NCBI GenBank assembly: GCA_023267315.1
Contig: JAHFNN010000008.1
Coordinates: 1-38,670 of the forward strand
Length of the DNA stretch: 38,670 nucleotides
Direction: 5' to 3'
Source of the DNA: Candidatus Nomurabacteria bacterium
GTDB taxonomy: Bacteria; Patescibacteriota; Minisyncoccia; Phycocordibacterales; UBA9973
Shown: piece by piece, positions 2-31,702 of the stretch
How positions within the stretch are numbered: the first letter of the stretch is position 1
Layout: each line of letters opens with the position of its first letter
Notes under the pieces: generated by a model
What the model saw: only the letters and a program-made list of their open reading frames with translations
Databases searched by the model: none
Told to the model about the DNA's origin: nothing
Made by a program: the position numbers and the translations under genes

Positions 2-1672
2 CAGCTTACTACAACATTAAATCTTCATGGCAACCAGCTCATTAATGGGCAAGATCTAAATGAAAACCTTACCGCGATATTTGATGCATTAATGAACAAA
101 CTCTTCAGTATGGGTGTAAATGCACTGTCGACTGATACCAAGGACACAACAGATCAATCAACTGGTGGACCAGGAGAAAATTCCAGCCAACTACCAACGA
201 CACCAGACGTGCAAAATGATTGGAGTACTTTGGGTGGTCAATATAAAGATTTTGACATCTTCCATGACATCGATAATTGTATTCCAAGCGACACGAATCT
301 AGCCCACATCAAAGCAAAAACAATAAATAATAGTACTGATGACTGTATGTTAAACCCACAACTCACTAGTGACACAGATACAAACCCCGACCGTATTGGT
401 GGTATATATGTACTCAACACAAATAATCAAAACAACAATAACGGGGGGCTTGATGAAGATGCAAACAATCCCCTCAATAAGCCAGGGCCAATTGAACTAT
501 CAATCAAATTTATAAACGCTATTGGTGATCCAAACAAAGGATACCGATCAACAACATTCCCTGGTACAAAATTTGATATCGGTAAACCATATGGAACAGT
601 GGTGCGAACAGGCGCAGGGCACGAAGCAAGTGATTTTAACGCAGCAAAAGGATTTGATGCATCAACAAACGACAGCACCCTTACAAAAACAGCATATGAC
701 CTTATCTACGAGTTGAAGCAACTTGATTACTGTATTCCAGGACCATCACAGGGATATGGTCAACCACTTCAAGAAAAAGTTCAAAAGCAAGAACAAGAGT
801 GGGAGAAGTACGTAGCTGAAAATAGCGGGATGTTCGATAGTATAAAATATCACTTTACATTCCCATTTATGGCAATCTTAGGTGGTACTATGTGCGTCCC
901 TGGAGGAGTATGGGATGGAGATCAGGCGTTACAACGTCTCGATAATCTAGTGAATCAATTCAACAACACAATCGCAACAACATATGATGTGAGAAGTGGG
1001 AACCTTCCATACATTACCAGTACAGCACTGGATAAAGTTTCTCAAATAGACCAATTGAATCTCCAAATAACAGATAACAACAACCAGGTTCAAGATTCAA
1101 AGAACAATCTAAATACCCTAAAATATTTGTCGAAGAATCTGGTAACACTACAAACAAGCTATCCAGATAAATATAAAAATATAACGAATGTAAATGATCC
1201 AAATTATTCACAAAGCCAACAAAATCCTGATTATGCAAAGAAGTTGAATGCATTGAAGGGAATGTTTCTCCGTATAAATCCAAACCTACCAACCAGTGCA
1301 GCTATCGATGACATTGTGGGTAACATAGAAATTCTGGGAAGTGATTTAAGTGTTGTAGCTGATAAAGATATAGGTATGATTAAGCAGTGCATTGAACAAG
1401 TGCGTGCAATTCCAACAGCATTACACGGACGTCAACCTTATCCAGGAATCAGTCCGATATACACGGACAAAAACCAGACTGGTATCGATGAAACAGGGGC
1501 AGGCTACGACAACACAAGCTTCCTTGAAACAACACGCCCAACTGATGGATTTGATATGACATATTACCCAACAGCAACAGGAGCGGTAAGTGATGATGGA
1601 GACGGCTGCCCAAGTGGCCCTCAAATTCAAACGAATTTCAACGGATTTGAACACTACTTTGGAATTTACTAG
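2..1672 (+). CDS. C-terminal part of a large N/T/D/Q-rich extracellular protein (5' end lies left of the window)
   Basis: The frame of ORF 92..1672 stays open back to nt 2 (cag ctt act aca ... with no stop), so the ATG at 92 is probably internal. No TM helix or catalytic motif was recognised. It has N-rich low complexity (NTNNQNNNNGG). It is co-directional with, and directly upstream of, the T4SS-like genes. Confidence 0.6.
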   Translation, partial: QLTTTLNLHGNQLINGQDLNENLTAIFDALMNKLFSMGVNALSTDTKDTTDQSTGGPGENSSQLPTTPDVQNDWSTLGGQYKDFDIFHDIDNCIPSDTNLAHIKAKTINNSTDDCMLNPQLTSDTDTNPDRIGGIYVLNTNNQNNNNGGLDEDANNPLNKPGPIELSIKFINAIGDPNKGYRSTTFPGTKFDIGKPYGTVVRTGAGHEASDFNAAKGFDASTNDSTLTKTAYDLIYELKQLDYCIPGPSQGYGQPLQEKVQKQEQEWEKYVAENSGMFDSIKYHFTFPFMAILGGTMCVPGGVWDGDQALQRLDNLVNQFNNTIATTYDVRSGNLPYITSTALDKVSQIDQLNLQITDNNNQVQDSKNNLNTLKYLSKNLVTLQTSYPDKYKNITNVNDPNYSQSQQNPDYAKKLNALKGMFLRINPNLPTSAAIDDIVGNIEILGSDLSVVADKDIGMIKQCIEQVRAIPTALHGRQPYPGISPIYTDKNQTGIDETGAGYDNTSFLETTRPTDGFDMTYYPTATGAVSDDGDGCPSGPQIQTNFNGFEHYFGIY

Positions 1673-1705: not shown

Positions 1706-1747
1706 GATATCCCCTCGCATCACTATAGTAGTGTGCGAGGGGATATC
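1706..1747. other. Near-perfect 19-bp inverted repeat (hairpin) in the gap before the VirB6-like gene
   Basis: GATATCCCCTCGCA(T)CACTA-TAG-TAGTGTGCGAGGGGATATC, with one bulged T. An A-rich run (1683-1700) lies on its left and there is no T-run on its right. TATAAT at 1749-1754 follows immediately. Confidence 0.7.
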
Positions 1748-1781
1748 GTATAATGGAAGTGCAACAGATAGCCACGCGGGT

Positions 1782-4217
1782 ATGTTCAAAAAGTTTATAC
1801 TCATCATCATCATACTGACAATGTGCTTCTCTCCCGTTATCGGGCCTATTGGACATGCAAAGGCTGCTCAAACAACTACTAATGATGCGCTGCGACAAGA
1901 AGCGGGATGTACAGACTTCAATTCCTCCAGCGTTTCGAACTGTTTAGTTGTTGTGGCGTATTATGCAATGTATGTTTTTCCTTCATGGTTGATGGGGATC
2001 ACTGCAAATTTATTTAACGGATTGATCGGTATTGCACTCAGTAGTCAGATGTACTCCAATTCCAAATTCATTGAGAATGCCTGGTCTATTGTTCGTGATT
2101 TTGCCAATTTGTTCCTCATTTTTATCCTCTTATTTATCGGAATCTCTATTATTCTGGGCCTACATATCGGAGGAGAAAGCCCAAAAAAAATGCTGGTATC
2201 CCTCATTATAATGGGGCTTTTAATAAACTTCAGTCTATTTTTCACCGAAGTGGTTATTGATACTTCAAATGTGTTAGGTCTCCTGTTTTACAACCAAATA
2301 ACAGCCACTGCAAACTATGAGCCTATTATCCAAAACAGCATCACGGGTATAGATGAAAAGGATGTGTCAGGATCAATGATCCAAGCATTTAAGCCGCAAG
2401 CATTTAACGATCCTACTTTTTATGCGAGCTTGCGCACTCTCGATAGCAAGGGGAACAACACCGTTGACCCATCTATTACATTTACCTTTATCATCATCGT
2501 GGGTATCATACTTTTAGTGGCAGCATGGACTTTTTTTGTTGCAGGTTTAAGTTTCTTAGGAAGATTAGTTGGTCTATGGATTGCTATTATATTTGCACCG
2601 TTTGCATTTGTTACCTATATAGTTCCGAGTCTTCGACATATTGAAGGTATTGGTTTTGATAATTGGTTATCCACATTGATTGAAACAGCTTTTGCCGCAC
2701 CAATTTTTATGTTTTTCATATACCTCATTAGTTTGATAACCAAAAACTCTTTCATAAGCAACTTTGATCCAACAAAGGAGACTACAATTTCTTTAAAAAT
2801 ATTATTCATCGTGATACCAATGATGATAATCATGATACTCCTTCTACAAGCACGAAAGTACGTCGAAAAAGCTTCTGGTCAACTCGGACAACTTGCAATT
2901 GCTGGTGGAAAATTAGCACTCGGTGCTGCTGGGGCGGTTGCATTTGGAACAGTTGCAAAGGCTGGAGTTCAGGGTATTGGAAGAATTGGTTCAAACATTG
3001 CCAATCGTCCTGCAATGGATAAACGTGATGGCGAAAGTAGAGCTGGATACTTCCTACGACGACAAGCCTCGTTATTGGGATACTACAAACCAGGAGGAAA
3101 TAAAGAGAAAGGTAGTGGTGCAGGAGACAAGGCAAGTACCCCACCTGCTGCTGGTGAAAAAACAAATACCGCACCAGAAGGCGAACACCAGATACCAATC
3201 AACGATGCAGCAATCCGCAATCTATACGGTCCGGCATCCTCAACCGCCGCTCCAGGTACTGCACTTAATTACTCATTTACTCCAGCACAACGTGCTCTAT
3301 TAATGGCAGATGGCAGACAGGTAACAGAGCCAGGAAGTTCAAGAGCAGGAGGCGGGCTTGGATCTGAAGCTGAAGCTATACGCCAGAGAAAACTTGCTGG
3401 TACAACCACCACAAATAATGCTGGGGCTCCACTACCAGGAACAGCATCTAACACAGGAGCACCTGGAGCCGCGGCACCAACAACAGCTGGCACAGCAGGA
3501 GGTGGTCATGGAGAGACAGGAGGCCATGGTGCTGGTACTACGAGTACAGGTAATCTCTCACTTAAAGACCGTGCAGCAATGGACAAAGGTCTTGCCATAC
3601 CTAAAATTAAGGCAATGCAGTGGCTATCAAAAAGTAGTTTTGATGTTCGCAATACCAAACTAATGGGCCTTCTATCAAAAGCAATGGGTGTGAATTTTGG
3701 TAAGGGAACTGCCGGCGGCTATGAGGCATGGAGAAACCGACAGGTAGCAAAGAAACAAAAATTTGCTGACTCGCTCAAGATGTCTCATGCCGAAAAAGCA
3801 TTACTTGATCGCACTAGACAAGAACTCAAAGACGAAGAAGAGAAAATCAGGCACGATATACAACACGCAGGAGATGTGGCAGGTAGAGATCAAAAGGATA
3901 TCGACAAAGATATTCGACGAGAACTTGCTACTAATAGTAAGGTTGTTGGTTTAAGGGGACAAGTCCACTCACAAGAAAAAGTGGAAAAAAACAGAGCAAG
4001 AAATTACGCAAATATTGTAGATGGTGGCTGGGGGGCAGGAAAATGGGCTCGATCTGCTGGATTTTATCAAGAACATCACCTTGAAGCTGGTAATAAAATA
4101 CGCTCTGGCGCACCAATTGATGCTGAGGCCTTGAAAAAAGTATTAGTGGGTGGTAGTAGTGGTGGAGGGGGTGGTCACGGAGGAGGCGGACATGGTGGCG
4201 GAGGAGGACATCACTAA
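1782..4217 (+). CDS. Polytopic membrane protein, VirB6/TrbL-like by architecture and context, with a long low-complexity tail ending in a Gly/His tract
   Basis: ATG 1782 gives the signal-like N-terminus MFKKFILIIIILTMCFSPVIGPIGHAKA. The ORF-track start at 1731 lies inside the 1706-1747 hairpin. At least six long hydrophobic helices occur in aa ~70-390 (FANLFLIFILLFIGISIILGL, WIAIIFAPFAFVTYIV, LKILFIVIPMMIIMILLL). The following ~430 aa are G/A/T/P-rich plus a charged segment and end GGGGGHGGGGHGGGGGHH. The family call rests on topology and neighbourhood, not on a diagnostic motif. Confidence 0.5.
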   Translation: MFKKFILIIIILTMCFSPVIGPIGHAKAAQTTTNDALRQEAGCTDFNSSSVSNCLVVVAYYAMYVFPSWLMGITANLFNGLIGIALSSQMYSNSKFIENAWSIVRDFANLFLIFILLFIGISIILGLHIGGESPKKMLVSLIIMGLLINFSLFFTEVVIDTSNVLGLLFYNQITATANYEPIIQNSITGIDEKDVSGSMIQAFKPQAFNDPTFYASLRTLDSKGNNTVDPSITFTFIIIVGIILLVAAWTFFVAGLSFLGRLVGLWIAIIFAPFAFVTYIVPSLRHIEGIGFDNWLSTLIETAFAAPIFMFFIYLISLITKNSFISNFDPTKETTISLKILFIVIPMMIIMILLLQARKYVEKASGQLGQLAIAGGKLALGAAGAVAFGTVAKAGVQGIGRIGSNIANRPAMDKRDGESRAGYFLRRQASLLGYYKPGGNKEKGSGAGDKASTPPAAGEKTNTAPEGEHQIPINDAAIRNLYGPASSTAAPGTALNYSFTPAQRALLMADGRQVTEPGSSRAGGGLGSEAEAIRQRKLAGTTTTNNAGAPLPGTASNTGAPGAAAPTTAGTAGGGHGETGGHGAGTTSTGNLSLKDRAAMDKGLAIPKIKAMQWLSKSSFDVRNTKLMGLLSKAMGVNFGKGTAGGYEAWRNRQVAKKQKFADSLKMSHAEKALLDRTRQELKDEEEKIRHDIQHAGDVAGRDQKDIDKDIRRELATNSKVVGLRGQVHSQEKVEKNRARNYANIVDGGWGAGKWARSAGFYQEHHLEAGNKIRSGAPIDAEALKKVLVGGSSGGGGGHGGGGHGGGGGHH

Positions 4218-4248: not shown

Positions 4249-5316
4249 ATGGATGAAGAAACAAAAAAAATAATAGAAGAGCAATTCGAAAATATGCCTG
4301 AGGATGTTCGACAAGCACTTATCTCCACAAATTGGACAATTGAACTTTCGAATATCATCAAAAAGTATGGCTTACATGCCGATCAAGCGGATATTCTTTT
4401 TAAAGAAACCGTATTGATACTTTTCGGATTAGCTCATCCCGGTGACTATCAAACAGAACTCGAAGAGCGGCTAAAAATCCCATCAGAGCGCGCAATCGCT
4501 ATTGTAAATGATGTTAATGAACACATTATTTCCAAAATGCGACAATATTTAAAAGACGAGGAAGATGATGAAGAAGGAGAGAAAGTAGACCTCACCAACC
4601 AGAATCTCACTGACGAAGAAAAAGATGTGCTTGGACAATACAACGTGCTTCCCAAAAAAGTGCAGGATGCAATTAAATCAGAAAGCTTACCAAAAAAAAT
4701 TCAAGATGCAGGGATAAAAAATCAGATTCCATCATCACAATTTGGTGATATTGAAACAGAAGTATCCATGGTACTTTTAGGACTCGAAGTTCCCGATAAT
4801 CTTTATGTGAAGCTTATGGAGCGTATGAAAATACCTGAGGATAAAGCTCGCGCCCTCGCAAATGATTTGAGTGCAAGCATATTCGATCCAATCAAAGATT
4901 CTTTGAGTATTGCCACCTCACGAGAAAATGTTGTTTTTGAAAAAGAAGAAAATAAAGTGTTTGAAGACTCAGGTATTAGCATCATTAATGAGCAAGCGCC
5001 TGCACCACTTCCTCCAGAAAAACCAACTACACCACTACGATCGGGGATGGAGAAAACAATTCGAGATGATTTATTGGAAAAAATCGAACATCCACCAGCG
5101 ACACCTACATCAGGTATATCAATTATTCAAGCAAAATTACAAGGAAATTTTTCTCTCCCCTCCGAAAAACGCGAGTATGTTCTCAAAAACTTATCGCGCG
5201 GTGGAGCAAAGCCAGCAAGCACCCCTATACCACCGAGTCCTCAAGCGGCACCAGCACCTGCGCCGAATGCAGCACGATCATCAGATCCATACCACGAACA
5301 AATCATACCTGAATAA
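4249..5316 (+). CDS. Acidic cytoplasmic protein with an internally duplicated ~80-aa module and a Pro-rich C-terminus; function unknown
   Basis: No signal peptide or TM helix. Two modules share the pattern V(R/Q)xAI.S...E..(L/V)(L/I)L.GL..P.....L.ER(L/M)KIP...A.A..ND. A DEEDDEEGE linker lies between them. The C-terminus is PAPLPPEKP...PPSPQAAPAPAPN. Confidence 0.6.
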   Translation: MDEETKKIIEEQFENMPEDVRQALISTNWTIELSNIIKKYGLHADQADILFKETVLILFGLAHPGDYQTELEERLKIPSERAIAIVNDVNEHIISKMRQYLKDEEDDEEGEKVDLTNQNLTDEEKDVLGQYNVLPKKVQDAIKSESLPKKIQDAGIKNQIPSSQFGDIETEVSMVLLGLEVPDNLYVKLMERMKIPEDKARALANDLSASIFDPIKDSLSIATSRENVVFEKEENKVFEDSGISIINEQAPAPLPPEKPTTPLRSGMEKTIRDDLLEKIEHPPATPTSGISIIQAKLQGNFSLPSEKREYVLKNLSRGGAKPASTPIPPSPQAAPAPAPNAARSSDPYHEQIIPE

Positions 5317-5392: not shown

Positions 5393-5800
5393 ATGCAGGC
5401 TCGTGTGCCACAATTTATCGACATACCCGATAAAATATTCGGTCCCTTCACATTCAAGCAATTCATCTATCTTGCTGGTGGTGGTGGTATTGCCTTTGTA
5501 TTATATAAAGCATTCCCATTTGTTGTCGCGGTAATTCCAATACTTATTGTTCTTACACTTTCAATAATGCTCACGTTCTATAAGATAAACAATCAATCAT
5601 TCATTGAAATACTTCAGGCTGCAATAAAATTTCAAACTCAAGGGAAACTCTATATTTGGAAAAAAAGTGGCAAGAAAAAAGCTCCAGTCACCGTCACTGC
5701 AAAAAAAGATGAGTCTATTGTTATACCACGACTTACCTCCAATAAACTTGATGATCTTTCATGGAGTTTGAACATTTTGGATTCGAATAGGGAACTATAA
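5393..5800 (+). CDS. PrgI-family (VirB3-like) small membrane protein of Gram-positive-type T4SS
   Basis: The N-terminus MQARVPQFIDIPDKIFGPFTFKQFIYLAGGGG is followed by two adjacent TM helices, which matches the PrgI family signature as I recall it. It sits immediately upstream of the VirB4-type genes. TATAAT 5381-5386 lies 6 nt before the ATG. Confidence 0.7.
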   Translation: MQARVPQFIDIPDKIFGPFTFKQFIYLAGGGGIAFVLYKAFPFVVAVIPILIVLTLSIMLTFYKINNQSFIEILQAAIKFQTQGKLYIWKKSGKKKAPVTVTAKKDESIVIPRLTSNKLDDLSWSLNILDSNREL

Positions 5801-5803
5801 TAT

Positions 5804-6484
5804 ATGTCAGTAAATGCAAAATCAACTCAAGAATTCGTGCCAATCAAGGAAGTACGCGACGGTGTCATACTTTTGAAAGATGGTGGCCTCCGTGCGGTAC
5901 TTCTTGCTACATCAATCAACTTGTCACTCAAGGCGTATGATGAACAGAAGGCGATCATTATGAATTTTGAATCGTTTTTAAATACACTCGATTTTTCAAC
6001 ACAAATTGTAATTCAGTCTCGTCGTCTTGATATTCGTCCGTACATTCAAGTTCTTGAAAACAGAAAGCGCGAACAGTTTGAGCCACTTTTAAAAATACAA
6101 ACACAGGAATATATTAATTTCATTAAGAAATTTACTGAGGATGTACACATTATGACGAAGAATTTCTATATTGTTGTTCCATATACTCAGGCGACACTTT
6201 CAACAAAAAAAGGGTTCATGAGTAGTATTTTCCCATTTCTCGGAAAGAAAAATGAAGCAGAAGCAAAACAAGAAGCAAAAGCTGATTTTGAAGAGAAGCG
6301 AATGGAATTGGAACAACGTATCTCTGTCATCTCACAAGGATTAAATCCAATTGGTGTTAAAATGAGAAAGCTTAAGTCTGATGAAGTGATCGAGCTCTTC
6401 TATAAGACATTCAATCCTGGAGAAATTAATACGCACATCAAACTTGAAGGGGAGCTCAATCAAGACAAAAAGACTGAGGGATAA
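5804..6484 (+). CDS. VirB4 N-terminal-domain-like protein (probable detached N-terminal segment of a PrgJ/TcpF/Orf16-type ATPase)
   Basis: STQEFVPIKEVRDGVILLKDGGLRAVLLATSINLSLKAYDEQKAIIMNFESFLNTLDF resembles the extreme N-terminus of Gram-positive VirB4 ATPases. There is no Walker motif. Its stop codon is 5 nt from the next ATG. Confidence 0.5.
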   Translation: MSVNAKSTQEFVPIKEVRDGVILLKDGGLRAVLLATSINLSLKAYDEQKAIIMNFESFLNTLDFSTQIVIQSRRLDIRPYIQVLENRKREQFEPLLKIQTQEYINFIKKFTEDVHIMTKNFYIVVPYTQATLSTKKGFMSSIFPFLGKKNEAEAKQEAKADFEEKRMELEQRISVISQGLNPIGVKMRKLKSDEVIELFYKTFNPGEINTHIKLEGELNQDKKTEG

Positions 6485-6489
6485 TATAT

Positions 6490-8442
6490 ATGAGTATTGT
6501 TGATACACTATTAGGAAAAAATAAAAAGGGTACGGCAAAAAATCCAATGATGCCAGTATTGCCGCAGGAAATTTACGATGCGGCAAATATGGAGCTCGTG
6601 GATGTTATCGCGCCATCTGCGCTAAAAGTAGAGCCGAAATCACTCAATCTGGGAGATAAAATTGCCCGCACGTTTTTTGTTATTTCATATCCATCGACCC
6701 TTACTGACAACTGGTTTTCACCGATTGTTAATCTCGATAAAGTCTTTGATGTATCAATATTTATTCATCCAATTGAAACAGCAAAGATACTCCGACAATT
6801 CCAGAAGAAAGTGGCTGAGGTACAAAGCCAGATCAGCACTCGTGAATCACGTGGACTCGTACGCGATCCGATGTTGGATAGTGCGTATCGAGACCTTGAA
6901 TCTCTTCGTGACAGCTTGATGCAGGTTCAACAGCGAATGTTTGATGTTGGACTCTATATCACCATCTATGCAGACCAGTCAAAAGATCTCTTTGAGACCG
7001 AAAATGAAATAAAGTCGATTCTTGAAGCAAAACAAGTATTCTTAAAACCAGCACTCTTCCAACAAGAAGAGGGTTTGAAAAGTGTCATTCCGACGGGAAC
7101 AGATATGTTGAATATCCATACAAAGATGAATTCAGAGCCACTATCACTCATTTTCCCATTCATCTCGTTTGACCTTACTTCGAATGACGGAATCCTCTAC
7201 GGAATCAATCGTCACAACTCAAGTCTAATTATCTTCGATCGTTTCTCACTTGAAAACTACAACTCAATTATCTTTGCAAAATCTGGATCGGGAAAATCAT
7301 ACACAACCAAATTAGAAATTATTCGTACACTCATGTTCGATACGGAAGTTATTGTGATCGACCCAGAACGCGAATATGAATACTTGGCAGAGGCTATTGG
7401 AGGGCGTTACTTCAATATTTCTCTTTCATCAGATAACCATATCAATCCATTTGACCTACCTCCACCAGCCGAAGATGAAACAGCCCAGGATGTATTGCGA
7501 TCAAAAATTATTACCTTGGTGGGACTCTTCCGTGTGCTTTTAGGTGGTCTCACTCCAGAAGAAGATGCAATTATCGACCGCGCCCTCTCAGAAACATATG
7601 CGATCAAAGACATCACTCCTGAATCTGATTTCACTAACATTGAGCCACCACTACTTTCAGATTTCGAAATGGTACTCTCTGGAATGGAGAACTCAGAATC
7701 ATTAATACAACGCCTATCGAAATTCACCCATGGATCATGGGCATCATTCATCAACCAGCCTTCGAATGTAGATATCAATCGAAAATTCGTCGTGTTTTCT
7801 ATTCGAGACATGGAAGAAGAGTTGAAGCCTGCTGCAATGTATATCATCACAAACTTCATCTGGACTGTCGTACGCAAGGACAGACGAAAGCGCCTGCTTG
7901 TTGTGGATGAGGCATGGTGGATGATGAAATCAGATGACACTGCGCAATTCCTTTACTCTATCGCAAAACGTGGCCGAAAATATTTCTTGGGACTCTGTAC
8001 GGTGACTCAAGACGTGGCAGACTTCATGAAAAACCAGTACGGTGCGGCAATCGTCACCAACTCATCACTCCAACTTCTATTAAAACAATCACCGGCCTCT
8101 ATCGACCTCCTGCAAAAGACGTTCAATCTCACTGATGAAGAAAAATATCTCCTATTGGAATGTGATCGAGGGGAGGGGATATTCTTTGCAGGACTAAAGC
8201 ACGTAGCGATACGCGTCGTCGCATCATACACCGAGGACCAAATCGTCACTTCAGACCCAGGTCAAATCCTCGCAAACAAAAAAGAAAAGGAAGCTTTTGC
8301 AAACGCGGAACAAATGCAGCGTAGTAAAGAAGGCTCACTTATTGAGGCTGGAAACACTCAACCCGTAGCACCTCAAAACACACCCAATCAAAATATCCCA
8401 GCACCAACAACACAAGAAAATCCTCCAGTGCAAGCTATATAG
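6490..8442 (+). CDS. virB4: VirB4/TrsE-family type IV secretion ATPase
   Basis: Walker A is FAKSGSGKSYTTK and Walker B is RLLVVDEAWWMM. The upstream VirB4-type segment is VIAPSALKVEPKSLNLGDKIARTFFVISYPSTLTDNWFSPI. Length is 650 aa. Confidence 0.9.
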   Translation: MSIVDTLLGKNKKGTAKNPMMPVLPQEIYDAANMELVDVIAPSALKVEPKSLNLGDKIARTFFVISYPSTLTDNWFSPIVNLDKVFDVSIFIHPIETAKILRQFQKKVAEVQSQISTRESRGLVRDPMLDSAYRDLESLRDSLMQVQQRMFDVGLYITIYADQSKDLFETENEIKSILEAKQVFLKPALFQQEEGLKSVIPTGTDMLNIHTKMNSEPLSLIFPFISFDLTSNDGILYGINRHNSSLIIFDRFSLENYNSIIFAKSGSGKSYTTKLEIIRTLMFDTEVIVIDPEREYEYLAEAIGGRYFNISLSSDNHINPFDLPPPAEDETAQDVLRSKIITLVGLFRVLLGGLTPEEDAIIDRALSETYAIKDITPESDFTNIEPPLLSDFEMVLSGMENSESLIQRLSKFTHGSWASFINQPSNVDINRKFVVFSIRDMEEELKPAAMYIITNFIWTVVRKDRRKRLLVVDEAWWMMKSDDTAQFLYSIAKRGRKYFLGLCTVTQDVADFMKNQYGAAIVTNSSLQLLLKQSPASIDLLQKTFNLTDEEKYLLLECDRGEGIFFAGLKHVAIRVVASYTEDQIVTSDPGQILANKKEKEAFANAEQMQRSKEGSLIEAGNTQPVAPQNTPNQNIPAPTTQENPPVQAI

Positions 8443-8492
8443 AATACCGCCTTTGGTATTCCCCACGATACTCAATTAAATTTTTTGTTGCG

Positions 8493-8501
8493 TGATATAA
8501 T
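8493..8501 (+). promoter_or_regulatory. Extended -10 promoter element (TGaTATAAT), 7 nt upstream of ATG 8509
   Basis: The sequence tgatataat spans 8493-8501, followed by atactca and then the ATG. No SD is present. Confidence 0.45.
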
Positions 8502-8508
8502 ATACTCA

Positions 8509-9519
8509 ATGAATCGACGGATTCGAGTCTATGGTTTTAGAGTGTTTTTTTTACTTCTACTTATTGGTGGATCCTTTTTTGTTTCAAATGTCCGTGCTGC
8601 AGATATAATTAATGACAGTAATATAACGATACAACTAGACCCAAGTGCACCGGGACCATTTCAAGAAACAACCATTACATTGGTGAGCTACCTCGCTGAT
8701 TTGAATCAAGCTAAAATCACCTGGCAACAGGACGGGAAAAAAGTACTATCTAATATCGGGGCAAAAAGCTTCTCTTTTACTACTAAAGATGTGGGAAGCA
8801 CCACATCAATAACCGTTTTTATTGATATCTTAGGAAGCCCACTCATCACCAAACAACTTTCTGTAACACCAAATAACATCGACTTGTTGTGGGAGGCGAC
8901 GGATTCATACGTGCCGCCGTTTTACGAAGGGAAGGCGCTTCCGACATCTCAAAGTAAAGTACGAGTTGTTGCTATCCCAAATACTAATATAGGTAGTGGG
9001 GGTATTTCACCAGGAAATTTTGTGTACCAGTGGAAACTAAACTTCGACCCTGATCAAGATCAGTCAGGTTATTCAAAAAATGCATTCATATATGCTAACA
9101 GCTTCCTGAATAAATCAGATACGATATCGGTAACAGCATCATCTACAAGCGGAGGGGGAAGCGCTGATGCTTCAATTGATATTCCAATAAACAATCCATT
9201 GATACTTTTTTATGAAAATAACCCTCTTTTGGGCCTCGATTTTTCAAAAGCGCTCAACAATGGCTTTGATGTTACCGGTCGTGATGCACGAATTGTCGCG
9301 GAACCATTCTTCTTCTCACCGAAAGACCCAACATCAAATGAATTAACATACACATGGACAATGAACAACAATCCTATTAATACACCATCGACACCGAACC
9401 AGATTGCATTCTCTCGTACAGCTGACCAAACCGGCCAAAGTCGGATCTCATTATCAATTGATAGTGTTACCAAGCTTTATTTGAGTGCACAATCATTCTT
9501 CTTGATTAATCTAAAATAA
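8509..9519 (+). CDS. Secreted protein made of three ~100-aa beta/Ig-like modules; function unknown
   Basis: ATG 8509 gives MNRRIRVYGFRVFFLLLLIGGSFFVSNVRA, a signal peptide. The track start at 8485 is TTG and lies upstream of the -10 element. The three modules each carry an x(T/Y)xW strand (KITWQQD, FVYQWKLN, LTYTWTMN). The stop overlaps the next start (TAATG at 9517-9521). Confidence 0.65.
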   Translation: MNRRIRVYGFRVFFLLLLIGGSFFVSNVRAADIINDSNITIQLDPSAPGPFQETTITLVSYLADLNQAKITWQQDGKKVLSNIGAKSFSFTTKDVGSTTSITVFIDILGSPLITKQLSVTPNNIDLLWEATDSYVPPFYEGKALPTSQSKVRVVAIPNTNIGSGGISPGNFVYQWKLNFDPDQDQSGYSKNAFIYANSFLNKSDTISVTASSTSGGGSADASIDIPINNPLILFYENNPLLGLDFSKALNNGFDVTGRDARIVAEPFFFSPKDPTSNELTYTWTMNNNPINTPSTPNQIAFSRTADQTGQSRISLSIDSVTKLYLSAQSFFLINLK

Positions 9520-11138
9520 TGAATAAATTATTTAAAACAATATTCATAGTAATACTTTTATCTTTTTCTTTTGGAATTTCAGCGACTACTCATGCCGCGT
9601 CAGAAGAACATGCGGGATCGCTTAATCCAAAGGGGGATGTCAACTCAGAACAAGAAGCAAGAACTAATTACAGAACGGATTTTCTTTATTGTGATATTAC
9701 CAATTACAGCATATCTCCAAATGGCGATTCAAAAACAGATCCTCTGAACCCTCATATCGATGGTTCAATAGACTTTGACGGCGATACCTGGTATAGAGAT
9801 CGTGACACACTATACAAAAACGGTGATCAGCCAAAAGTCCATATCCAGCTCACAGCCGATAAATGTAAAGGTCTCAACATATATATTGCCGTACACTCTC
9901 TTGTAGTTAGCGCGGGTCCATTAGGAAATCCTTTGGCACTCATATGGGGACCGATAAAGGTTGACTCCGATCATAGAGTTTTTGACTTATATGCGCAGGC
10001 GGGGGCAATGCAGGGTATTTTTGCAAATAGAAACTGCTTAAAAGAAGTATGGGGTGTATGGGATTGTAAATTTGACGTGCAGGTGCTTGCTGCAAATTAT
10101 CAGTTTAGTAGCACTCATACTTCTTTAGTAATCTACGAGCCAGGAGTATTAGGGGAACCAAACTATCCGTCTCTTAATTATGATTGTAACGGGAGTTTCG
10201 CGGATATAGAATGTAAAGACGTCCCATGGAAAAAAATCACTCAAGATAGCCAGCTCTCGAGTGATACAATTATTCCTCTCGACCCCTCAAATCCCAACGG
10301 AAGTACAATCACTTATACCTACCTTCAACCATTACCAAATCCTGAAGGGGGTGGGAGTCTGAAAACATTCGATACATCAGACACATCATCTTTTGGTCAT
10401 TATGTGACAATCATAGTTGAATTTATTATTGGGATCAGTGCTGTCCTCGCAGTACTTATGATTATTATTGGAGGTATTCAATACATGACCAGTGAACTCA
10501 TTAGTAATAAAGAAGAGGCCAAAAGCCATATGACGGGTGCCATATTGGGACTTTTGATTGTTCTAGCTACTGTTGTGATCCTACAGACCATCAATCCAGA
10601 TATATTGAATTTAAATTTACAAAAAAGCTTTCCACCAGACTCAGTACTAGACACTGGGGGTGACACACCTCCACCGCCAGCAAATGATAATAATAAAACG
10701 ATGGTGTGTAAAAATCCTTCATATGAATCAGGGTCTACCTGGTTTGATGATAGCTCAACGAGACAACAGATTATTGCCCTCTTAAAAGATCCAAATATCA
10801 TCAATAAAAGTAATTGTGCAACAGTAGGTCAAAGTAACTGCACAAGTGTCTATAACCTTGATTATTCTGGATTTGCAGCCTTAATAACCAAGGGTAATTT
10901 TAAGGCTGGTGATTTAATCATAACCGGAGGAACAGAGTGCTGGCTTCATCAAACCCATAAACCAGGAACTGGAATTATGGATTTAAGTGTAACTCCTGCG
11001 TTAAAGGCATATGTTGAGAAGGGTTTATTGACTCAAAAAGACTGGGATGGTGGCAAGGCTCCGATGTACACAGTCGGCACTACTCAATTTATATACGAAA
11101 CAAAAGGTGGGCCTCACTATCACGTACGAAGATGGTAA
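9519..11138 (+). CDS. Secreted fusion protein: Cys-rich N-domain, embedded double-TM T4SS-pilin (VirB2/TrbC-like) motif, Cys-containing C-domain with a possible LAS-type peptidase signature
   Basis: The signal peptide is MNKLFKTIFIVILLSFSFGISATTHA. The pilin-like hairpin (nt ~10391-10600) reads VTIIVEFIIGISAVLAVLMIIIGGIQYMTSELISNKEEAKSHMTGAILGLLIVLATVVILQTINP. The C-domain contains LIITGGTECWLHQTHKPGTGIMDLS and a terminal GGPHYHVRRW. Confidence 0.6.
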   Translation: MNKLFKTIFIVILLSFSFGISATTHAASEEHAGSLNPKGDVNSEQEARTNYRTDFLYCDITNYSISPNGDSKTDPLNPHIDGSIDFDGDTWYRDRDTLYKNGDQPKVHIQLTADKCKGLNIYIAVHSLVVSAGPLGNPLALIWGPIKVDSDHRVFDLYAQAGAMQGIFANRNCLKEVWGVWDCKFDVQVLAANYQFSSTHTSLVIYEPGVLGEPNYPSLNYDCNGSFADIECKDVPWKKITQDSQLSSDTIIPLDPSNPNGSTITYTYLQPLPNPEGGGSLKTFDTSDTSSFGHYVTIIVEFIIGISAVLAVLMIIIGGIQYMTSELISNKEEAKSHMTGAILGLLIVLATVVILQTINPDILNLNLQKSFPPDSVLDTGGDTPPPPANDNNKTMVCKNPSYESGSTWFDDSSTRQQIIALLKDPNIINKSNCATVGQSNCTSVYNLDYSGFAALITKGNFKAGDLIITGGTECWLHQTHKPGTGIMDLSVTPALKAYVEKGLLTQKDWDGGKAPMYTVGTTQFIYETKGGPHYHVRRW

Positions 11139-11149
11139 TATAGCACTAT

Positions 11150-12517
11150 ATGTCACGCGCAAAAATAATTACAATCATTATTCTCATAATTTTCGTCCTC
11201 TTCGGAGTTTATTTCTTCTTCAGTAATAAAGGAGGGAATGGAGGCTCTTCCACCGATTCTGGATTTAAGAGTTTCTTCCCATTTGGAAAACAAACTACAA
11301 ATACAAACAACCAAACTACTCCATCAGATAGCACAACACCATCAGACACTACTCCGGTTGAAAATCCTCCTGTCGTACTTTCTTCTACAAGTAAACTACA
11401 ACAACTCACCAATCGCTCGGTTGCGGGAATGCTCCCTGTTGAAGAAACACGTCTCTCAAAAGACCAACCAGTCGTTGATCCAAATGCACCAAAAGTATTC
11501 GGAGTAAAACCACCCGCACCAAAAACGGAAGTCGCAACAGCGGTACGATATATGGAGCGGGGGACTGCACATATTTTTGATATATTCCCCGACACCAAAC
11601 AGGAGCTCCGCGTTTCCAATACCACCATTCCACGCATTCACGATGCCACGTTTGGCAAAGATGGCGCATCTGTCATCTTCCGATTCTTAGACACTGATAA
11701 TACGACGATAAAGACCTACAGCGCACAAATAACTACCGCAAAAGATCTCACTCAAGGTACCGGGACACTAGATCTGCCACCACTTAAAGGAGCTTTTCTG
11801 GCAGATGACATACCGAATATAACAATATCAACCGACGGCACAAAAATGTTTTATCTATCCAAGTTCAATACTGGTGTTGTGGGAAACCTATCACTGCTCG
11901 ATGGCACAAAAAAAACTACTGTGTTCGACTCAGCCTTTACTGATTGGTTGCCGCGCTTTGCCAATAGTCGCCAAGTACTCCTTGTATCAAAAGCATCAGG
12001 ACTTGCTCTCGGCTCAGCGTATATTCTTGATACTCAGACAAAAACCTACGGAAATATTCTCTCGGGTGTCACTGGACTTACGGGGCTTCTCTCTCCTGAC
12101 AACAAACTGTTCCTATATGCGGTAGGAGGAACAGGGAAAATGGATTTGAATTTAATTACTGTAAGTTCAAAAACAAATACAGGTTTAAATATATCTACTC
12201 TTCCAGAAAAGTGTGTGTGGACAAAAGACAGTAAAACAATCTACTGCGCGGTACCAAAACAATTACTTCAAAATTCTATTTACCCAGATGCGTGGTATCA
12301 AGGTCTTGAATCATGGAGTGACTCACTATATAAAATCGATGTAAAAAGTGGCCAAGTGCAGATGATCGAGCCACTCTCGGTAGGGGACGGAATTGATGCG
12401 ACAAACCTCGAATTGAATGTGAAAGAAAACTATCTTGTATTTATCAATAAAAAGGATTCAACACTGTGGAGTTTCGATCTTACTCCAGCAGCAACCGGTA
12501 CAGGAAAAACACAATAA
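11150..12517 (+). CDS. N-terminally membrane-anchored protein with a probable beta-propeller (TolB/PD40-like) ectodomain; function unknown
   Basis: The TM anchor is IITIIILIIFVLFGVYFFF, followed by a T/S/P-rich linker. Repetitive beta-strand-like segments follow (KMFYLSKF..., KLFLYAVGG..., KTIYCAVP..., NYLVFINKKDSTLWSFD). This is the last gene before the terminator. Confidence 0.5.
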   Translation: MSRAKIITIIILIIFVLFGVYFFFSNKGGNGGSSTDSGFKSFFPFGKQTTNTNNQTTPSDSTTPSDTTPVENPPVVLSSTSKLQQLTNRSVAGMLPVEETRLSKDQPVVDPNAPKVFGVKPPAPKTEVATAVRYMERGTAHIFDIFPDTKQELRVSNTTIPRIHDATFGKDGASVIFRFLDTDNTTIKTYSAQITTAKDLTQGTGTLDLPPLKGAFLADDIPNITISTDGTKMFYLSKFNTGVVGNLSLLDGTKKTTVFDSAFTDWLPRFANSRQVLLVSKASGLALGSAYILDTQTKTYGNILSGVTGLTGLLSPDNKLFLYAVGGTGKMDLNLITVSSKTNTGLNISTLPEKCVWTKDSKTIYCAVPKQLLQNSIYPDAWYQGLESWSDSLYKIDVKSGQVQMIEPLSVGDGIDATNLELNVKENYLVFINKKDSTLWSFDLTPAATGTGKTQ

Positions 12518-25409: not shown

Positions 25410-27110
25410 TTACTCTTCAGTTAATACCACTACTCCTTCGAGTTCTTCGAGTGAGGTGACACCTTTCATGACTTTAATCACCCCATCTTCTTTCATATCA
25501 AGAATTCCTTGTTTTCTCGCAACACGTTTAATCTCTCGCTCTGATGGATTTTCTGGAATTATTTTTTCAATATTCTCATCAGTATAAATTGCTTCAAATA
25601 CTCCGATCTGGCCTTTATATCCTAAGTTGTTACATTTCTCGCATCCAACTGGTCCCCACATTTCTATTTCCTGATCTTTGTTTACTCCATAAAAAGATAA
25701 ATCTTTACCATCTGCAGCTGCATCATCAAGCACCTTTTTCATGCGTGCGCGTTCTTCATCAGTCGGAACTTTTTTCTGTTTGCAATTTACGCAAAGTTTT
25801 CGCACGAGTCGTTGTGCCATTGAAAGTGAAAGTGCTGAAACAAGAATCTTTGGATTTATTTTAAGTTCAATCAATCGAGGGATCACTCCGGCCGCGTTGT
25901 TGGTATGGAGTGTTGAGAAGAAGAGGTGACCGGTGAGTGCTGATTCCACGGCAATCTTTGCTGTTTCGTCGTCGCGGATTTCTCCCACCATGATTACATC
26001 TGGATCTTGTCGTAACACTGAGCGGAGACCATCCAAGAATGTGTATCCTTTTGTTTCTTCTACTTGCGTCTGAGTAATACCTGCTAAATGATATTCGATT
26101 GGGTCTTCAATGGTGATGATTTTGATTTCTGGAGAATAAATTCGTCGTAAAAAAGCATAGAGTGTCGTGGTTTTACCAGATCCAGTCGGACCAGTCACCA
26201 AGATCATTCCATTTGGTTTCTTAATTTCTCGCTGTATCACTTCGAATAATTTTGGTTCAATACCGAGCTCTTCAAGTTTTACCTTAATTGCTTTTGGATT
26301 CAATATTCGCATGACGATTGACTCACCGTACGCTCCTGGAATGAGAGAGGTACGCATACTAATCTCATCTTCTTTTATAAAAATTGAAAAGCGGCCGTCT
26401 TGTGCATTCTTGTCGGTGGTTATTTTCATTCCTGAGAGGAGTTTGATTCGTGAATCAAGTAAGTGAAATACATCGTGACCGAAGTGCATTACATCTTGTA
26501 GATATCCATCGAGACGGAATCGTAGACGCACATCCTTCTCTTCAGGTTCAATGTGCACATCAGATGCATTGAGTGCGATTGCGCCAGCTAAAATGATTTC
26601 AAGCATACGCGAAATCTTATGCACTTTTTTATCTTGAGCCGCTGCTTCAATAACTTTTTCAACATCTTGAAATGTTTTAATCTGTTCACCGAGGGAAAGT
26701 AGTGTGTCTCCGGAAACATCAAGACCGCCGACACGTGATTGTTCTGCCTGTGAGAGTTCTTTATAACGCTCCCAAACTTTTGCCAAGCTCGCATTCGAAG
26801 CCATGAAAAGAATCGGGGTGTATCCTTTTTCAGTCAGTTCATTTTTGAGTGCCAATACTTCTGGTTGTTCTGGGGCGCGTACTGCGATGTGAATTTTTTT
26901 ACCGAGTATTTTAAATGGAGCGACACCGATTTTTTTGGCGAGTTCTTCTGGTACGACACGCAATGCTTCATTTTCGACGATGACGGTAGAGAGATCCGCG
27001 TAGGGAACACCATACTTTACTTGTGCGAGTGTTGCCACGAGTTCTTCCTCCTCTCTTTTCTTGAAATCTTCAAGTTGTTTCTGCTCTTTTTCTTCATCAA
27101 AGGGGATCAT
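25410..27110 (-). CDS. pilB: GspE/PilB-family type IV pilus or type II secretion assembly ATPase
   Basis: It has an N-terminal T2SSE_N-like domain. Walker A is GPTGSGKTTTLYA. It has Asp/His-box regions and tetracysteine motifs CVNC...CEKC. TATAGT lies 6 nt upstream of the ATG on the minus strand (27117-27122). Confidence 0.92.
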   Translation of the reverse strand: MIPFDEEKEQKQLEDFKKREEEELVATLAQVKYGVPYADLSTVIVENEALRVVPEELAKKIGVAPFKILGKKIHIAVRAPEQPEVLALKNELTEKGYTPILFMASNASLAKVWERYKELSQAEQSRVGGLDVSGDTLLSLGEQIKTFQDVEKVIEAAAQDKKVHKISRMLEIILAGAIALNASDVHIEPEEKDVRLRFRLDGYLQDVMHFGHDVFHLLDSRIKLLSGMKITTDKNAQDGRFSIFIKEDEISMRTSLIPGAYGESIVMRILNPKAIKVKLEELGIEPKLFEVIQREIKKPNGMILVTGPTGSGKTTTLYAFLRRIYSPEIKIITIEDPIEYHLAGITQTQVEETKGYTFLDGLRSVLRQDPDVIMVGEIRDDETAKIAVESALTGHLFFSTLHTNNAAGVIPRLIELKINPKILVSALSLSMAQRLVRKLCVNCKQKKVPTDEERARMKKVLDDAAADGKDLSFYGVNKDQEIEMWGPVGCEKCNNLGYKGQIGVFEAIYTDENIEKIIPENPSEREIKRVARKQGILDMKEDGVIKVMKGVTSLEELEGVVVLTEE

Positions 27111-29209: not shown

Positions 29210-31702
29210 ATGAAAAATACAGCAAAAATAATTATGTTCGGTGCCGCATTCTTCATCGCAAGCTTTTTTGCGTACGGAAGTCATGCACAAGCAAGCACTG
29301 TTTTTAATACGAATTCAAAAGACTATGCAACAGTCGAAGTTTCTAACTACACACAGAATCCTGGGTGTACTTCATGTTGGAGTTCTTCAGTTAATGCAAA
29401 CCCTGGAGACGTTGTCTCTGTGGAAATTTATTATCACAATACTGGAAGTGAAGCAGCACAGAATACACTCATCAAGCTTTCTCCACAATCAACCGGCCAG
29501 GTAAATTCTCAAACATTTTCAGGCGGAGTTGTTGCTAATAATGCAGGTTACGTTTCTGGATCTGCGACAATCAATCTTTCAAGTCCACAAACATTTACAT
29601 ATATTCCAGGCACCACACGTTGGTACGCTGACAATCAAAATTCTTCAGCAAGTACACTCTTGAGTGGCCAGAATGGTTCTGAGGCATTCAGTGGTGGATT
29701 GAGTCTTGGTACAATCGGATCAGTCCTCGATTGTCCAAATACAAATTCATTTTGTCATCAAGGAGTTGTTGTCTTTCGTTTCCAAGTGGGTGTTACACAA
29801 GCACCACAGCCATGTGTGATCAATAGCTTTACTGCAAATGGATCTACTGGTTCAACAACTATCTCACAGGGAAGTGCTGCAACACTTGCATGGTCAACAT
29901 CGAATTGTACCGCAGCAACTATTTCTCCATATATTGGTACGGTTGTAACGAACGGCACGGTAAGTACTGGTTCGCTTTCAAATTCTGTAACCTATATTCT
30001 TTCAGCTACTGGAAATACTGGTAGTCCAACAAGCCAGGTGACGGTATATACGAATCAAGTTCAACAACAGCCATGTGTGATCAATAGCTTTACTGCATCA
30101 CCATCATCTATTGCTCAATACTCATCATCAACACTTGCATGGTCAACATCTAATTGTACCTCTGCATCGATCTCAAATATCGGTGTTGTAAATACCAGTG
30201 GTAGTACTTCAACTGGTTCACTTTCAAACACGATGACCTACACACTGACGGCTTCTGGAAATTCTGGAAACCCATCAAGTCAGGTGACTGTATCTGTGAA
30301 TCAAATACAGCAGCAGTACTGTACTATCAATAGTTTCTACGCATCACCATCATCAATCAATCAGTATGATTCCGCTACGCTATACTGGTCTACCAATAAT
30401 TGTACTTCTGCATCAATCTCAAACATTGGTACAGTAAATACCAACGGTAGTACTTCAACTGGTTCACTTTCAAACACGATGACGTATACGCTTACTGCGT
30501 ACGGACAAAACGGTAATCCGTCTTCATCAACTACGGTATATGTAAACCAAAATCAACAGCAAAATTATTGTACAATCAATAGTTTCTACGCATCACCATC
30601 ATCACTCAGTCAGCCAGGGTACTCAACACTGTACTGGTCTACAAACAACTGTACTTCAGTTTCAATTTCAAACGTTGGTTCTGTAAATACAAATGGTAGC
30701 GTTTCAACTGGATATATTTCAAATACCACCACATTCATGTTGACTGCGTATGGTAATAACGGAACACAGAATAGTTCTACGACTGTTTCAGTAAATAATG
30801 TAAATGTTGGGAACTTGAGTGTCGCGACAACAGTTGCTACCTCAATCACCAAGTCATCTGCTCGTATTCATGGTCTTGTAACCAATTCAACAAACCAGAA
30901 TGCAACAGGATGGTTTGAATATGGAACCTCAACTGGTCTTGGTCTTACGACTAATACACAATCACTTGGCTCAACGAGTTCACTTGATATGGGGCAAAAT
31001 ATCAATGGTCTCACATCTAATACAACCTATTATTTCCGAGCAGTGGCGCAAGGATACAATGGCAGTATTGTTCGCGGAAACATTGAAAGCTTTACGACAC
31101 TTGAACCATCATCAAACATTGTGTACGTCACTAACAACAACACTACGGTAAATGGTGGGGGAGCGCAGTCACTCGTAGCGCTTACGATTACAACTCCATT
31201 CTCAACTGTTCGCCCTGGTGATAGTGTCTCTTATATTGTTACCTACACAAACATTTCAAAAACAATTCTTTCAAATACGGTGCTTAATGTGAAGTTGCCA
31301 CAGGCAGTAGATTTCACTGGTTCATCAGCTGGTCTCTTCTCAAATGATGATCATTCATTGACCTGGACGATTGGAACATTAAATCCAAAAGATACTGGTA
31401 CAGTGACTATTCAAGGAATGGTTAATAACAAAGGCGAAAATCACGACACATTAATTACTACTGCAACATTGACTTACACACTTCCTGGTGGAGCTCAAGA
31501 TACTGCAATTGCGTACGCAACTCAGACAGTAAATAATGGTAGTGTGCTTGGAGCATTTGCGCTCGGTGCTGGATTTTTCCCAGGACTACTTCTTATCTTG
31601 CTCATCATCCTCATCATTATCTTGCTCATGTACTTTACCCGACGCCGATACGCAGCAGATCAGCATCATAGTGGTCCACCGATGCCACCACCGCATCATT
31701 AA
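29210..31702 (+). CDS. Large surface protein or adhesin: signal peptide, CARDB/DUF11-like domain, four tandem two-Cys Ig-like repeats, FN3-like domain, DUF11-like domain and a C-terminal TM anchor
   Basis: The signal peptide is MKNTAKIIMFGAAFFIASFFAYGSHAQA. The repeats have the form C(V/T)INSF.A...TL.WST.NCT...ISN.G.VNT.GS.STG. The FN3-like segment is GWFEYGTSTGLG...TTYYFRAVAQ. The DUF11-like segment is VRPGDSVSYIVTYTN...LTWTIGTLNPKDTGTVT. The C-terminus is GFFPGLLLILLIILIIILLMYFTRRRY followed by HHSGPPMPPPHH. Confidence 0.75.
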   Translation: MKNTAKIIMFGAAFFIASFFAYGSHAQASTVFNTNSKDYATVEVSNYTQNPGCTSCWSSSVNANPGDVVSVEIYYHNTGSEAAQNTLIKLSPQSTGQVNSQTFSGGVVANNAGYVSGSATINLSSPQTFTYIPGTTRWYADNQNSSASTLLSGQNGSEAFSGGLSLGTIGSVLDCPNTNSFCHQGVVVFRFQVGVTQAPQPCVINSFTANGSTGSTTISQGSAATLAWSTSNCTAATISPYIGTVVTNGTVSTGSLSNSVTYILSATGNTGSPTSQVTVYTNQVQQQPCVINSFTASPSSIAQYSSSTLAWSTSNCTSASISNIGVVNTSGSTSTGSLSNTMTYTLTASGNSGNPSSQVTVSVNQIQQQYCTINSFYASPSSINQYDSATLYWSTNNCTSASISNIGTVNTNGSTSTGSLSNTMTYTLTAYGQNGNPSSSTTVYVNQNQQQNYCTINSFYASPSSLSQPGYSTLYWSTNNCTSVSISNVGSVNTNGSVSTGYISNTTTFMLTAYGNNGTQNSSTTVSVNNVNVGNLSVATTVATSITKSSARIHGLVTNSTNQNATGWFEYGTSTGLGLTTNTQSLGSTSSLDMGQNINGLTSNTTYYFRAVAQGYNGSIVRGNIESFTTLEPSSNIVYVTNNNTTVNGGGAQSLVALTITTPFSTVRPGDSVSYIVTYTNISKTILSNTVLNVKLPQAVDFTGSSAGLFSNDDHSLTWTIGTLNPKDTGTVTIQGMVNNKGENHDTLITTATLTYTLPGGAQDTAIAYATQTVNNGSVLGAFALGAGFFPGLLLILLIILIIILLMYFTRRRYAADQHHSGPPMPPPHH
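29807..30799 (+). repeat. Four tandem coding repeats of 246-261 bp (82-87 aa)
   Basis: Unit starts fall near 29807, 30068, 30314 and 30563. Shared strings include CAGCCATGTGTGATCAATAGCTTTACTGCA in units 1-2 and ATCAATAGTTTCTACGCATCACCATCATCA in units 3-4. Confidence 0.85.

Follow-up and report, generated by a model that had tools for sequence, protein, structure and literature searches.

The question raised by this locus is what a pilin motif of a type IV secretion system (T4SS) is doing in the middle of a large secreted protein. The window analysed here, 38,670 nt of contig JAHFNN010000008.1 from a Candidatus Nomurabacteria bacterium, carries an open reading frame (ORF) at 9519..11138 on the + strand whose 539-aa product holds a VirB2-type hydrophobic hairpin between two large domains; this ORF is the target of the analysis, and all coordinates are positions within the window. 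An earlier note on the DNA had read the product as a pilin fused to a possible cell-wall peptidase. Our reading is that it is a VirB2-like pilin subunit of the chromosomal, origin-proximal T4SS of a Paceibacteria-like bacterium (Patescibacteria, also called the candidate phyla radiation), and that its C-terminal head is most likely a metal-dependent peptidoglycan enzyme. We put the probability of this reading at roughly 60%.

Architecture of the protein

The earlier note had described a secreted fusion of a signal peptide, a large domain, a hairpin, a linker and a C-terminal domain, and the ORF is built exactly in that way. Its five parts, together with a short beta-hairpin that precedes the pilin helices, are as follows, where pLDDT is the predicted local distance difference test score of the AlphaFold2 models.

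9519..9596, + strand: signal peptide MNKLFKTIFIVILLSFSFGISATTHA, residues 1-26 (hydrophobic 4-22; helix 2-20 in the model)
9597..10310, + strand: N-terminal extracytoplasmic domain, residues 27-264, with 6 Cys and rich in Asp, Ser, Gly and Asn (pLDDT <50)
10311..10388, + strand: pre-pilin beta-hairpin, residues 265-290, from alignments (strands 265-273 and 280-285, pLDDT 71-84)
10389..10592, + strand: VirB2/T4SS-pilin helical hairpin, residues 291-358, with two transmembrane helices and a cytoplasmic charged loop at 325-337
10593..10703, + strand: Pro-rich linker, residues 359-395 (INPDILNL...DTPPPPANDNNKTM; PPPP at 384-387; pLDDT 45-69)
10704..11138, + strand: C-terminal head domain, residues 396-539 plus the stop codon, from alignments (AlphaFold2 pLDDT 95.4)

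About 240 aa thus precede the hairpin and about 180 aa follow it. Hydropathy gives three hydrophobic segments, at residues 4-22, 298-316 and 340-358, the last two separated by the charged loop SELISNKEEAKSH, and an A-x-A-like motif suggests a predicted signal-peptide cleavage at THA|AS. The full-length AlphaFold2 model, built on a 60-sequence alignment, shows a beta-hairpin at 265-285, helices at 291-324 and 328-358 with pLDDT 83-96, a disordered linker and a C-terminal domain with pLDDT above 90. The modelled helical hairpin matches the hydrophobic segments, as the topology proposed for it demands, and from sequence and model it follows that both flanking modules should lie outside the cell, as had been claimed, with the short loop of the hairpin in the cytoplasm.

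Most of the finer detail in the earlier description was also borne out. The peptides quoted for the hairpin are residues 304-355 (nt 10428-10583), inside the range of about 10391-10600 that had been given for it; the Pro-rich linker is followed by a domain with 4 Cys (397, 433, 441 and 474), and the motifs THKPGTGIMD and HYH lie at residues 479-488 and 533-535. The N-terminal part was miscounted, having 6 Cys (58, 116, 173, 183, 223 and 232) and not 7.

The target start ATG shares bases with the TAA of the gene upstream (TAATG) and the gene downstream begins 12 nt past its stop, so that the target is one cistron of a tight operon. The 539-aa product is also called, without any difference, on a separate ENA contig, and the fusion is therefore not an assembly artefact of the window. 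The N-terminal domain as an assembly or frameshift artefact was likewise ruled out, since the domain lies in one ORF that begins with a signal peptide, the local G+C content (GC) is unremarkable and the other contig has the same product.

Identity of the pilin hairpin

Residues 299-357 match the Pfam T4SS_pilin model PF18895 with an E-value of 4.7e-6 and a score of 27.0 bits, the gathering cut-off being 26.6, so that the family assignment expected from the hairpin holds, though barely. The target does not reach the threshold of the TrbC/VirB2 model PF04956 (11.7 vs 27.9), and the Mbov_0395 pilin-like model of NCBIfam matches it only below cut-off. A clade-specific pilin hidden Markov model (HMM) detects the target with an E-value of 8e-34, and its hairpin is 40-60% identical to many pilins that are annotated as such by Pfam. 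The target is also the sole pilin-like ORF in the window, and the same is true of its counterparts in the orthologous loci.

A Y-x-L-L-A-P-L-P strand, in which Y266, L269 and P271 are nearly invariant, stands before the pilin helices in all members, whatever their N-terminal domain or head. This strand might be a processing or docking element.

Two of the related loci carry tandem pairs of pilin ORFs with differing tails (L235, 1476-2968; L240, 1069-3247). They look like the small pilin arrays reported in Saccharimonadia.

A large family of heads

Homologues found with the whole protein align from residue ~265 onward only, and the C-terminal head is what defines the wider family. A profile built from 51 C-terminal domains finds 1,920 representative proteins (50%-identity clusters) at E<=1e-3, and 873 at E<=1e-10. 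Among 180 fetched members, 176 have a pilin hairpin upstream of the head and the other four are fragments; the head is almost always C-terminal, with 40 to 429 aa preceding the hairpin.

In 154 full-length heads the residues C433, C441, T442, W475, H477, H480, D488, H533 and H535 are 100% conserved, and conservation is at least 97% at G437, S443, E473 and E527. H480, D488, H533 and H535, which had been flagged from the single sequence, are thus all conserved in the homologues. Within a stretch of 60 residues, seven His, Asp and Glu positions are invariant or nearly so. The target keeps every one of the invariant His, Asp and Glu residues despite the loss of a Cys pair (C-x2-C type) found in 98% of the family, in place of which it has F461 and G464 (nt ~10899-10910).

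The head family has no match in the Pfam-A, NCBIfam, PHROGs or PDB sequences searched, and a phage tblastn search with the C-terminal domain returned nothing. An AlphaFold2 model of the head, from 28 sequences, is confident (pLDDT 95.4; predicted template modelling score 0.88). Foldseek comparison of this model with PDB and BFVD finds no known fold, the best template modelling score (TM-score) being 0.25-0.30, and the full-length target model finds nothing in PDB. Judged by its sequence, the head belongs to a large, undescribed family in which a His/His/Asp...Glu/His/His constellation is invariant.

Four other assignments for the head, a NodB deacetylase (H-S-x-x-H), a cupin, Amidase_3 and a beta-beta-alpha-Me nuclease, were considered on their motifs only and were dropped because no match supported them.

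Peptidoglycan enzymes in the same operon slot

An independent indication of what the head does comes from related pilins. A pilin-hairpin alignment from a smaller, less diverse set was used for a pattern scan of GTDB species genomes, which gave 80 loci with 83 pilin ORFs, 74 of these having at least 120 aa after the hairpin. The Pfam matches in the 74 tails are as follows.

VanY: 11 of 74 tails
NLPC_P60: 10 of 74 tails
YkuD: 7 of 74 tails
Peptidase_M15_4: 6 of 74 tails
SLT_2: 6 of 74 tails
SLT_3: 4 of 74 tails
Extensin-like_C: 4 of 74 tails (hit description only)
Amidase_5: 3 of 74 tails
Amidase_2: 1 of 74 tails
SLT: 1 of 74 tails

The VanY and Peptidase_M15_4 tails form a single 17-member BLAST cluster, and a head of the target type is found on 11 tails. 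Relatives from the first search likewise have SLT_2, NlpC/P60 or Amidase_2 C-terminal to the hairpin. All the head types occupy one operon slot: whatever the head, a homologue of the 344-aa gene product encoded directly upstream of the target precedes 70 of the 74 pilin genes, and a homologue of the 455-aa product encoded directly downstream follows 67 of them. VirB4 lies farther upstream where the flank extends that far.

In 63 of 75 cases the nearest hairpin neighbour bears a different head, and the hairpins closest to that of the target bear SLT-like, NlpC/P60 and M15 heads. Head type therefore does not track hairpin similarity, which points to an exchange of heads by modular shuffling. It also changes how unusual the target appears. 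Its architecture, which had been thought exceptional, is so when set against classical pilins; within its own pilin clade it is not, as the tails of 74 of the 83 ORFs demonstrate.

These comparisons divide the earlier suggestion of a VirB1-like wall function into two. It is strongly, if indirectly, favoured by the VanY/M15_4, NlpC/P60, SLT, YkuD and amidase domains of the positional orthologues, but the target itself has no recognisable hydrolase domain. On the strength of the invariant residues and of the heads of these orthologues, the head would most likely be a metal-dependent enzyme acting on peptidoglycan. It is the best candidate for the VirB1 function because Pfam recognises no hydrolase domain in any other gene of the target operon.

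Seven pilins, in L197, L216 and other loci of one tail cluster, have the YkuD (L,D-transpeptidase) head. From these, the heads may serve to remodel the wall and not just to break through it.

Is the head a LAS peptidase?

A sharper form of our reading is that the head is a divergent LAS-type (M15/VanY-like) zinc peptidase that cuts the peptide stems or cross-links of peptidoglycan. The earlier note had raised this on the basis of motifs, and its appeal becomes apparent when the family is compared with M15 enzymes. Three motifs are alike and collinear: IITGGTE with (I)SGYRS; T-x-H-x-P-G-x-x-x-V-D with S-x-H-x-x-G-x-A-x-D, the Gly standing at H+3 in both; and the family consensus E-x-x-H-W-H with E-x-W-H-W of the pilin-linked VanY heads. 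H480 and D488 would then correspond to S-x-H-x-x-G-x-A-x-D, and E527 and H533 to E-x-x-H. The family consensus at the end is E-x-x-H-x-H, which in the target reads E527-x5-H533-x-H535, and these motif residues are invariant or at least 97% conserved. In its size and in having its last His close to the C-terminus the domain is like small M15 enzymes, and no kind of head occupies this slot more often than true M15 heads.

The similarity searches do not follow. No HMM, profile-profile or Foldseek comparison supports LAS/M15 homology: none of 28 head C-terminal domains matches the Pfam M15, M23 or M74 models at E<=1, NCBIfam gives no M15/M23/M74 match for the whole target protein, the PDB sequences give none either, and no LAS structure is among the best 50 Foldseek matches in PDB or BFVD. 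For profile-profile comparison an M15A alignment of 82 sequences was assembled from E. coli MepK and phage/viral loci; phage M15 seeds and a scan of viral contigs were used because a MepK search of genome contigs had returned only relatives of at least 87% identity. With hhalign the head gave P=0.26 against this alignment and P=0.15 against the 17 pilin-linked VanY/M15_4 domains, and comparisons with MepK alone and with a 5-sequence M15A set were also not significant. The M15 scores were 12.0-14.6, and controls were equal or higher (15.1 for YkuD, 13.6-16.0 for reversed M15 profiles). The hhalign alignments to M15 thus do not rise above noise, even though the best local ones fall exactly on the shared H/G/D and E/H motifs. 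In addition, H480-x7-D488 exceeds the M15 spacing by one residue, and the head has no counterpart of the SGYR arginine. We hold LAS membership to be a tentative lead and not a result, more doubtful than not; the head may be a very divergent LAS zinc peptidase or a new fold.

An orphan N-terminal domain

The other large domain is of a different character. Searches of a collection of 5.8 billion proteins, of GTDB genomes, of JGI metagenomes and of the local pool found no homologue of residues 27-264; the collection search also missed the query's own protein, which makes it weak when taken alone. The domain has no Pfam match, and only its residues ~216-265 are faintly similar to four family members. 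The full-length model is of no use for this domain, with pLDDT below 50 over residues 19-262.

The same position is hypervariable in the relatives, where 53 of 60 N-regions have no Pfam match and the remaining ones are immunoglobulin (Ig)/fn3-like or carbohydrate-binding (Pur_ac_phosph_N, Big_1, Filamin, Y_Y_Y and CBM_10). First-search relatives have Big_5, fn3 and DUF5018 at this position, and the domain of the target is absent from two orthologues at the same position, P0002 of 348 aa and P0048 of 319 aa. By these sequence comparisons the domain is an orphan, lineage-specific insertion at a hypervariable position. By analogy with the Ig/fn3-like modules of relatives, a role in surface or host binding and specificity is plausible. 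The target is otherwise a typical member of its clade, and what is particular to it is this orphan domain and one lost Cys pair.

Operon and genomic neighbourhood

The window has a GC of ~39% and is a chromosome segment spanning the replication origin. Its genes include jag(R3H)-yidC-rnpA divergent from dnaA-dnaN, followed by PBP1, tyrS, ruvB, polA and a PilB-like ATPase. The genes around the target that bear on its function are as follows.

1731..4217, + strand: 828-aa polytopic protein with 8 transmembrane-like segments in the first ~370 residues and a long hydrophilic rest (hydropathy)
5393..5800, + strand: PrgI/VirB3 (Pfam PrgI)
5804..6484, + strand: TraC-like N-part of VirB4, 226 aa (NCBIfam VirB4_plasma at positions 100-234, and TrsD)
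6490..8442, + strand: VirB4 ATPase (Pfam P-loop_TraG and AAA_10; NCBIfam)
8485..9519, + strand: secreted 344-aa partner protein, directly upstream of and translationally coupled to the target (no Pfam match)
11150..12517, + strand: membrane-anchored 455-aa partner directly downstream, with an N-terminal transmembrane segment at 6-24 (no Pfam match)

The first five lie upstream of the target in this order and on the same strand. The same order is found beside dnaA in two other assemblies (L004 and L006), in which the gene in the target slot is only 348 or 319 aa long. The 828-aa protein, which has no Pfam match, is from its position a candidate VirB6 equivalent (an extended VirB6), and its place is conserved in both of these loci. 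The 344-aa and 455-aa flanking envelope proteins are probably T4SS components without a known family. Two further ORFs, at 92..1672 and 4249..5316 (+), have neither a Pfam match nor a transmembrane-like segment.

Published T4SS loci of Patescibacteria are MPF-FATA-like, lie near dnaA, have VirB2-like pilins and are usually without a relaxase (PMC12102498), a picture that the target locus fits. The setting by dnaA with VirB2-like pilins is described in two papers (PMC12102498, PMC10633639), and such pilins are known from Patescibacteria from these and a third (PMC10633639, PMC12102498, PMC12857230). The homologues are named Paceibacterota, Nomurabacteria, Moranbacteria, Zambryskibacteria and Wolfebacteria.

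VirB4 appears to be split into two genes, a 211-226-aa N-part (TraC-like by Pfam in the orthologues) and a 610-650-aa ATPase, and the split is kept in all three loci compared (the window; L004, 6470-8954; L006, 6424-9009). Also within the window are a PilB/T2SSE-type ATPase gene at 25410..27110 (-) and an 830-aa DUF11 surface-repeat protein at 29210..31702 (+), which is further envelope machinery typical of Patescibacteria.

How the protein might work

If the target is a pilin with an enzyme head, Sec export and signal-peptide cleavage would leave the two pilin helices as a membrane hairpin with a short cytoplasmic loop. VirB4 could then extract this hairpin from the membrane and assemble it at or on the T4SS. 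The 145-aa head, on its Pro-rich tether, would modify or open the peptidoglycan of the cell's own wall, of the host wall, or of both, and in this way might supply the VirB1-type wall-opening activity. The N-terminal domain would contact a surface.

Several observations weigh against this reading. The Pfam pilin score is marginal (27.0 vs 26.6 bits), and a canonical VirB2 filament may not tolerate a bulky domain at each end of its subunit. Neither sequence nor profile nor fold comparison links the head to any known enzyme, and its assignment as one draws solely on the conservation pattern and on positional analogy. The target is without the Cys pair common to 98% of the head family. Finally, YkuD is a cross-linking and not a lytic enzyme, so that the theme shared among the heads is that they are peptidoglycan-active, and not necessarily that they breach the wall.

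Part of this can be turned into an alternative in which the hairpin is a mere membrane anchor, and the target is either a tethered wall-remodelling enzyme or a precursor cut in the linker into a free pilin of ~90 aa and a soluble enzyme. The linker is suitably Pro-rich and poorly ordered, classical VirB2/TrbC pilins undergo trimming at each end, and wall enzymes of the YkuD and VanY type are typically housekeeping ones; the bulky termini would also fit poorly into a tight VirB2 helical filament. The operon speaks for a pilin subunit instead. Pfam detects no maturation protease (TraF/S26-like) in it, and the target is the only pilin-like ORF there and in the orthologous loci, so that the system would otherwise have no pilin. 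In at least 67 of 74 loci the gene also stands at one fixed point between genes linked to the T4SS. We consider this alternative rather unlikely.

That the C-terminal domain is not an enzyme and serves as a metal-stabilised binding module, an adhesin or receptor-binding tip for host contact, is improbable: it has no catalytic family match, its conserved Cys pairs point to an extracellular module stabilised by disulfides and the T4SS of epibiotic Patescibacteria is believed to work where they meet the host (PMC10633639), but seven conserved His, Asp and Glu in 60 residues are more typical of a catalytic than of a structural metal centre, the alternative heads that can be identified at the slot are all enzymes, with no lectin among them, and it is the hypervariable N-terminal position and not the conserved head that looks like the specificity module.

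Relation to known systems and meaning

As a pilin, the target shares a signal peptide, two hydrophobic helices and a short charged loop with VirB2/TrbC/TraA pilins and with the PF18895 family, which it matches and which includes the essential pilin array of Southlakia epibionticum; as with VirB2-type pilins, its gene adjoins VirB3/VirB4. The small single-domain size of T4SS pilins is what it lacks. Classical ones are ~70-120 aa when mature and have no extra domains, whereas the 539-aa target adds a 240-aa N-terminal domain and a 145-aa C-terminal domain outside the membrane.

As a putative wall enzyme, it can be compared with the VirB1-type hydrolases of monoderms (PrgK of pCF10, TraG of pIP501, TcpG and CwlT), which like the target are encoded in T4SS operons, extracytoplasmic, membrane-tethered and modular. 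Monoderm T4SSs normally require a peptidoglycan hydrolase, and these use SLT, NlpC/P60/CHAP and M23 domains, the same kinds as the alternative heads of related pilins (PMC12102498). They are separate proteins with an ordinary transmembrane anchor, however, whereas the anchor of the target is a pilin hairpin and its head stands outside the known hydrolase families. With the LAS M15 enzymes (VanY, LdcB, VanX, MepK and the phage L-Ala-D-Glu peptidases) the head has in common a similar size and the collinear H...G...D and E-x-x-H/H-x-H motifs, and true VanY/M15_4 domains occupy its slot in 17 of 74 related pilins; it differs in its lack of significant similarity, in the H-D spacing and missing arginine described above, and in an N-terminal half that is different and Cys-rich. 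The evolved VgrG/PAAR spikes of the type VI secretion system (T6SS; e.g. VgrG3, with a C-terminal peptidoglycan hydrolase) are another structural subunit with a swappable wall-degrading domain. The machine and fold are unrelated, and the domain fused there is a toxin delivered into a recipient cell.

In the literature searched we found no description of pilins fused to interchangeable peptidoglycan enzymes, nor of the head family of the target. The analysis suggests that in this pilin clade a wall-active enzyme is fused to the pilin itself, with six or more kinds of cell-wall-enzyme head recognised by Pfam in addition to the undescribed family. One survey concludes that VirB1 is usually missing when VirB2 occurs, and the pilin-enzyme fusions offer a simple explanation for this missing VirB1. 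The roughly 1,900 clusters at 50% identity are a large uncharacterised family of candidate enzymes whose model is confident and resembles no known fold.

In Patescibacteria the T4SS is a conserved system beside the replication origin; it is essential in the sole species tested, and its role has been described as completely unknown (PMC11665869, PMC10633639). The fusion picture gives a testable mechanism, namely the opening of the wall at the T4SS or at the site of host contact. In its boldest form, which we regard as speculative and on balance unlikely, the paceibacterial T4SS would build a short pilus or stalk whose VirB2-like subunits each bear a swappable peptidoglycan-active head and a hypervariable binding domain, drilling through the wall of the host, its own wall or both, the head of the target being a metal-dependent hydrolase of a new fold. 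If this is true, such an armed pilus would explain why the T4SS is essential for the epibiotic lifestyle.

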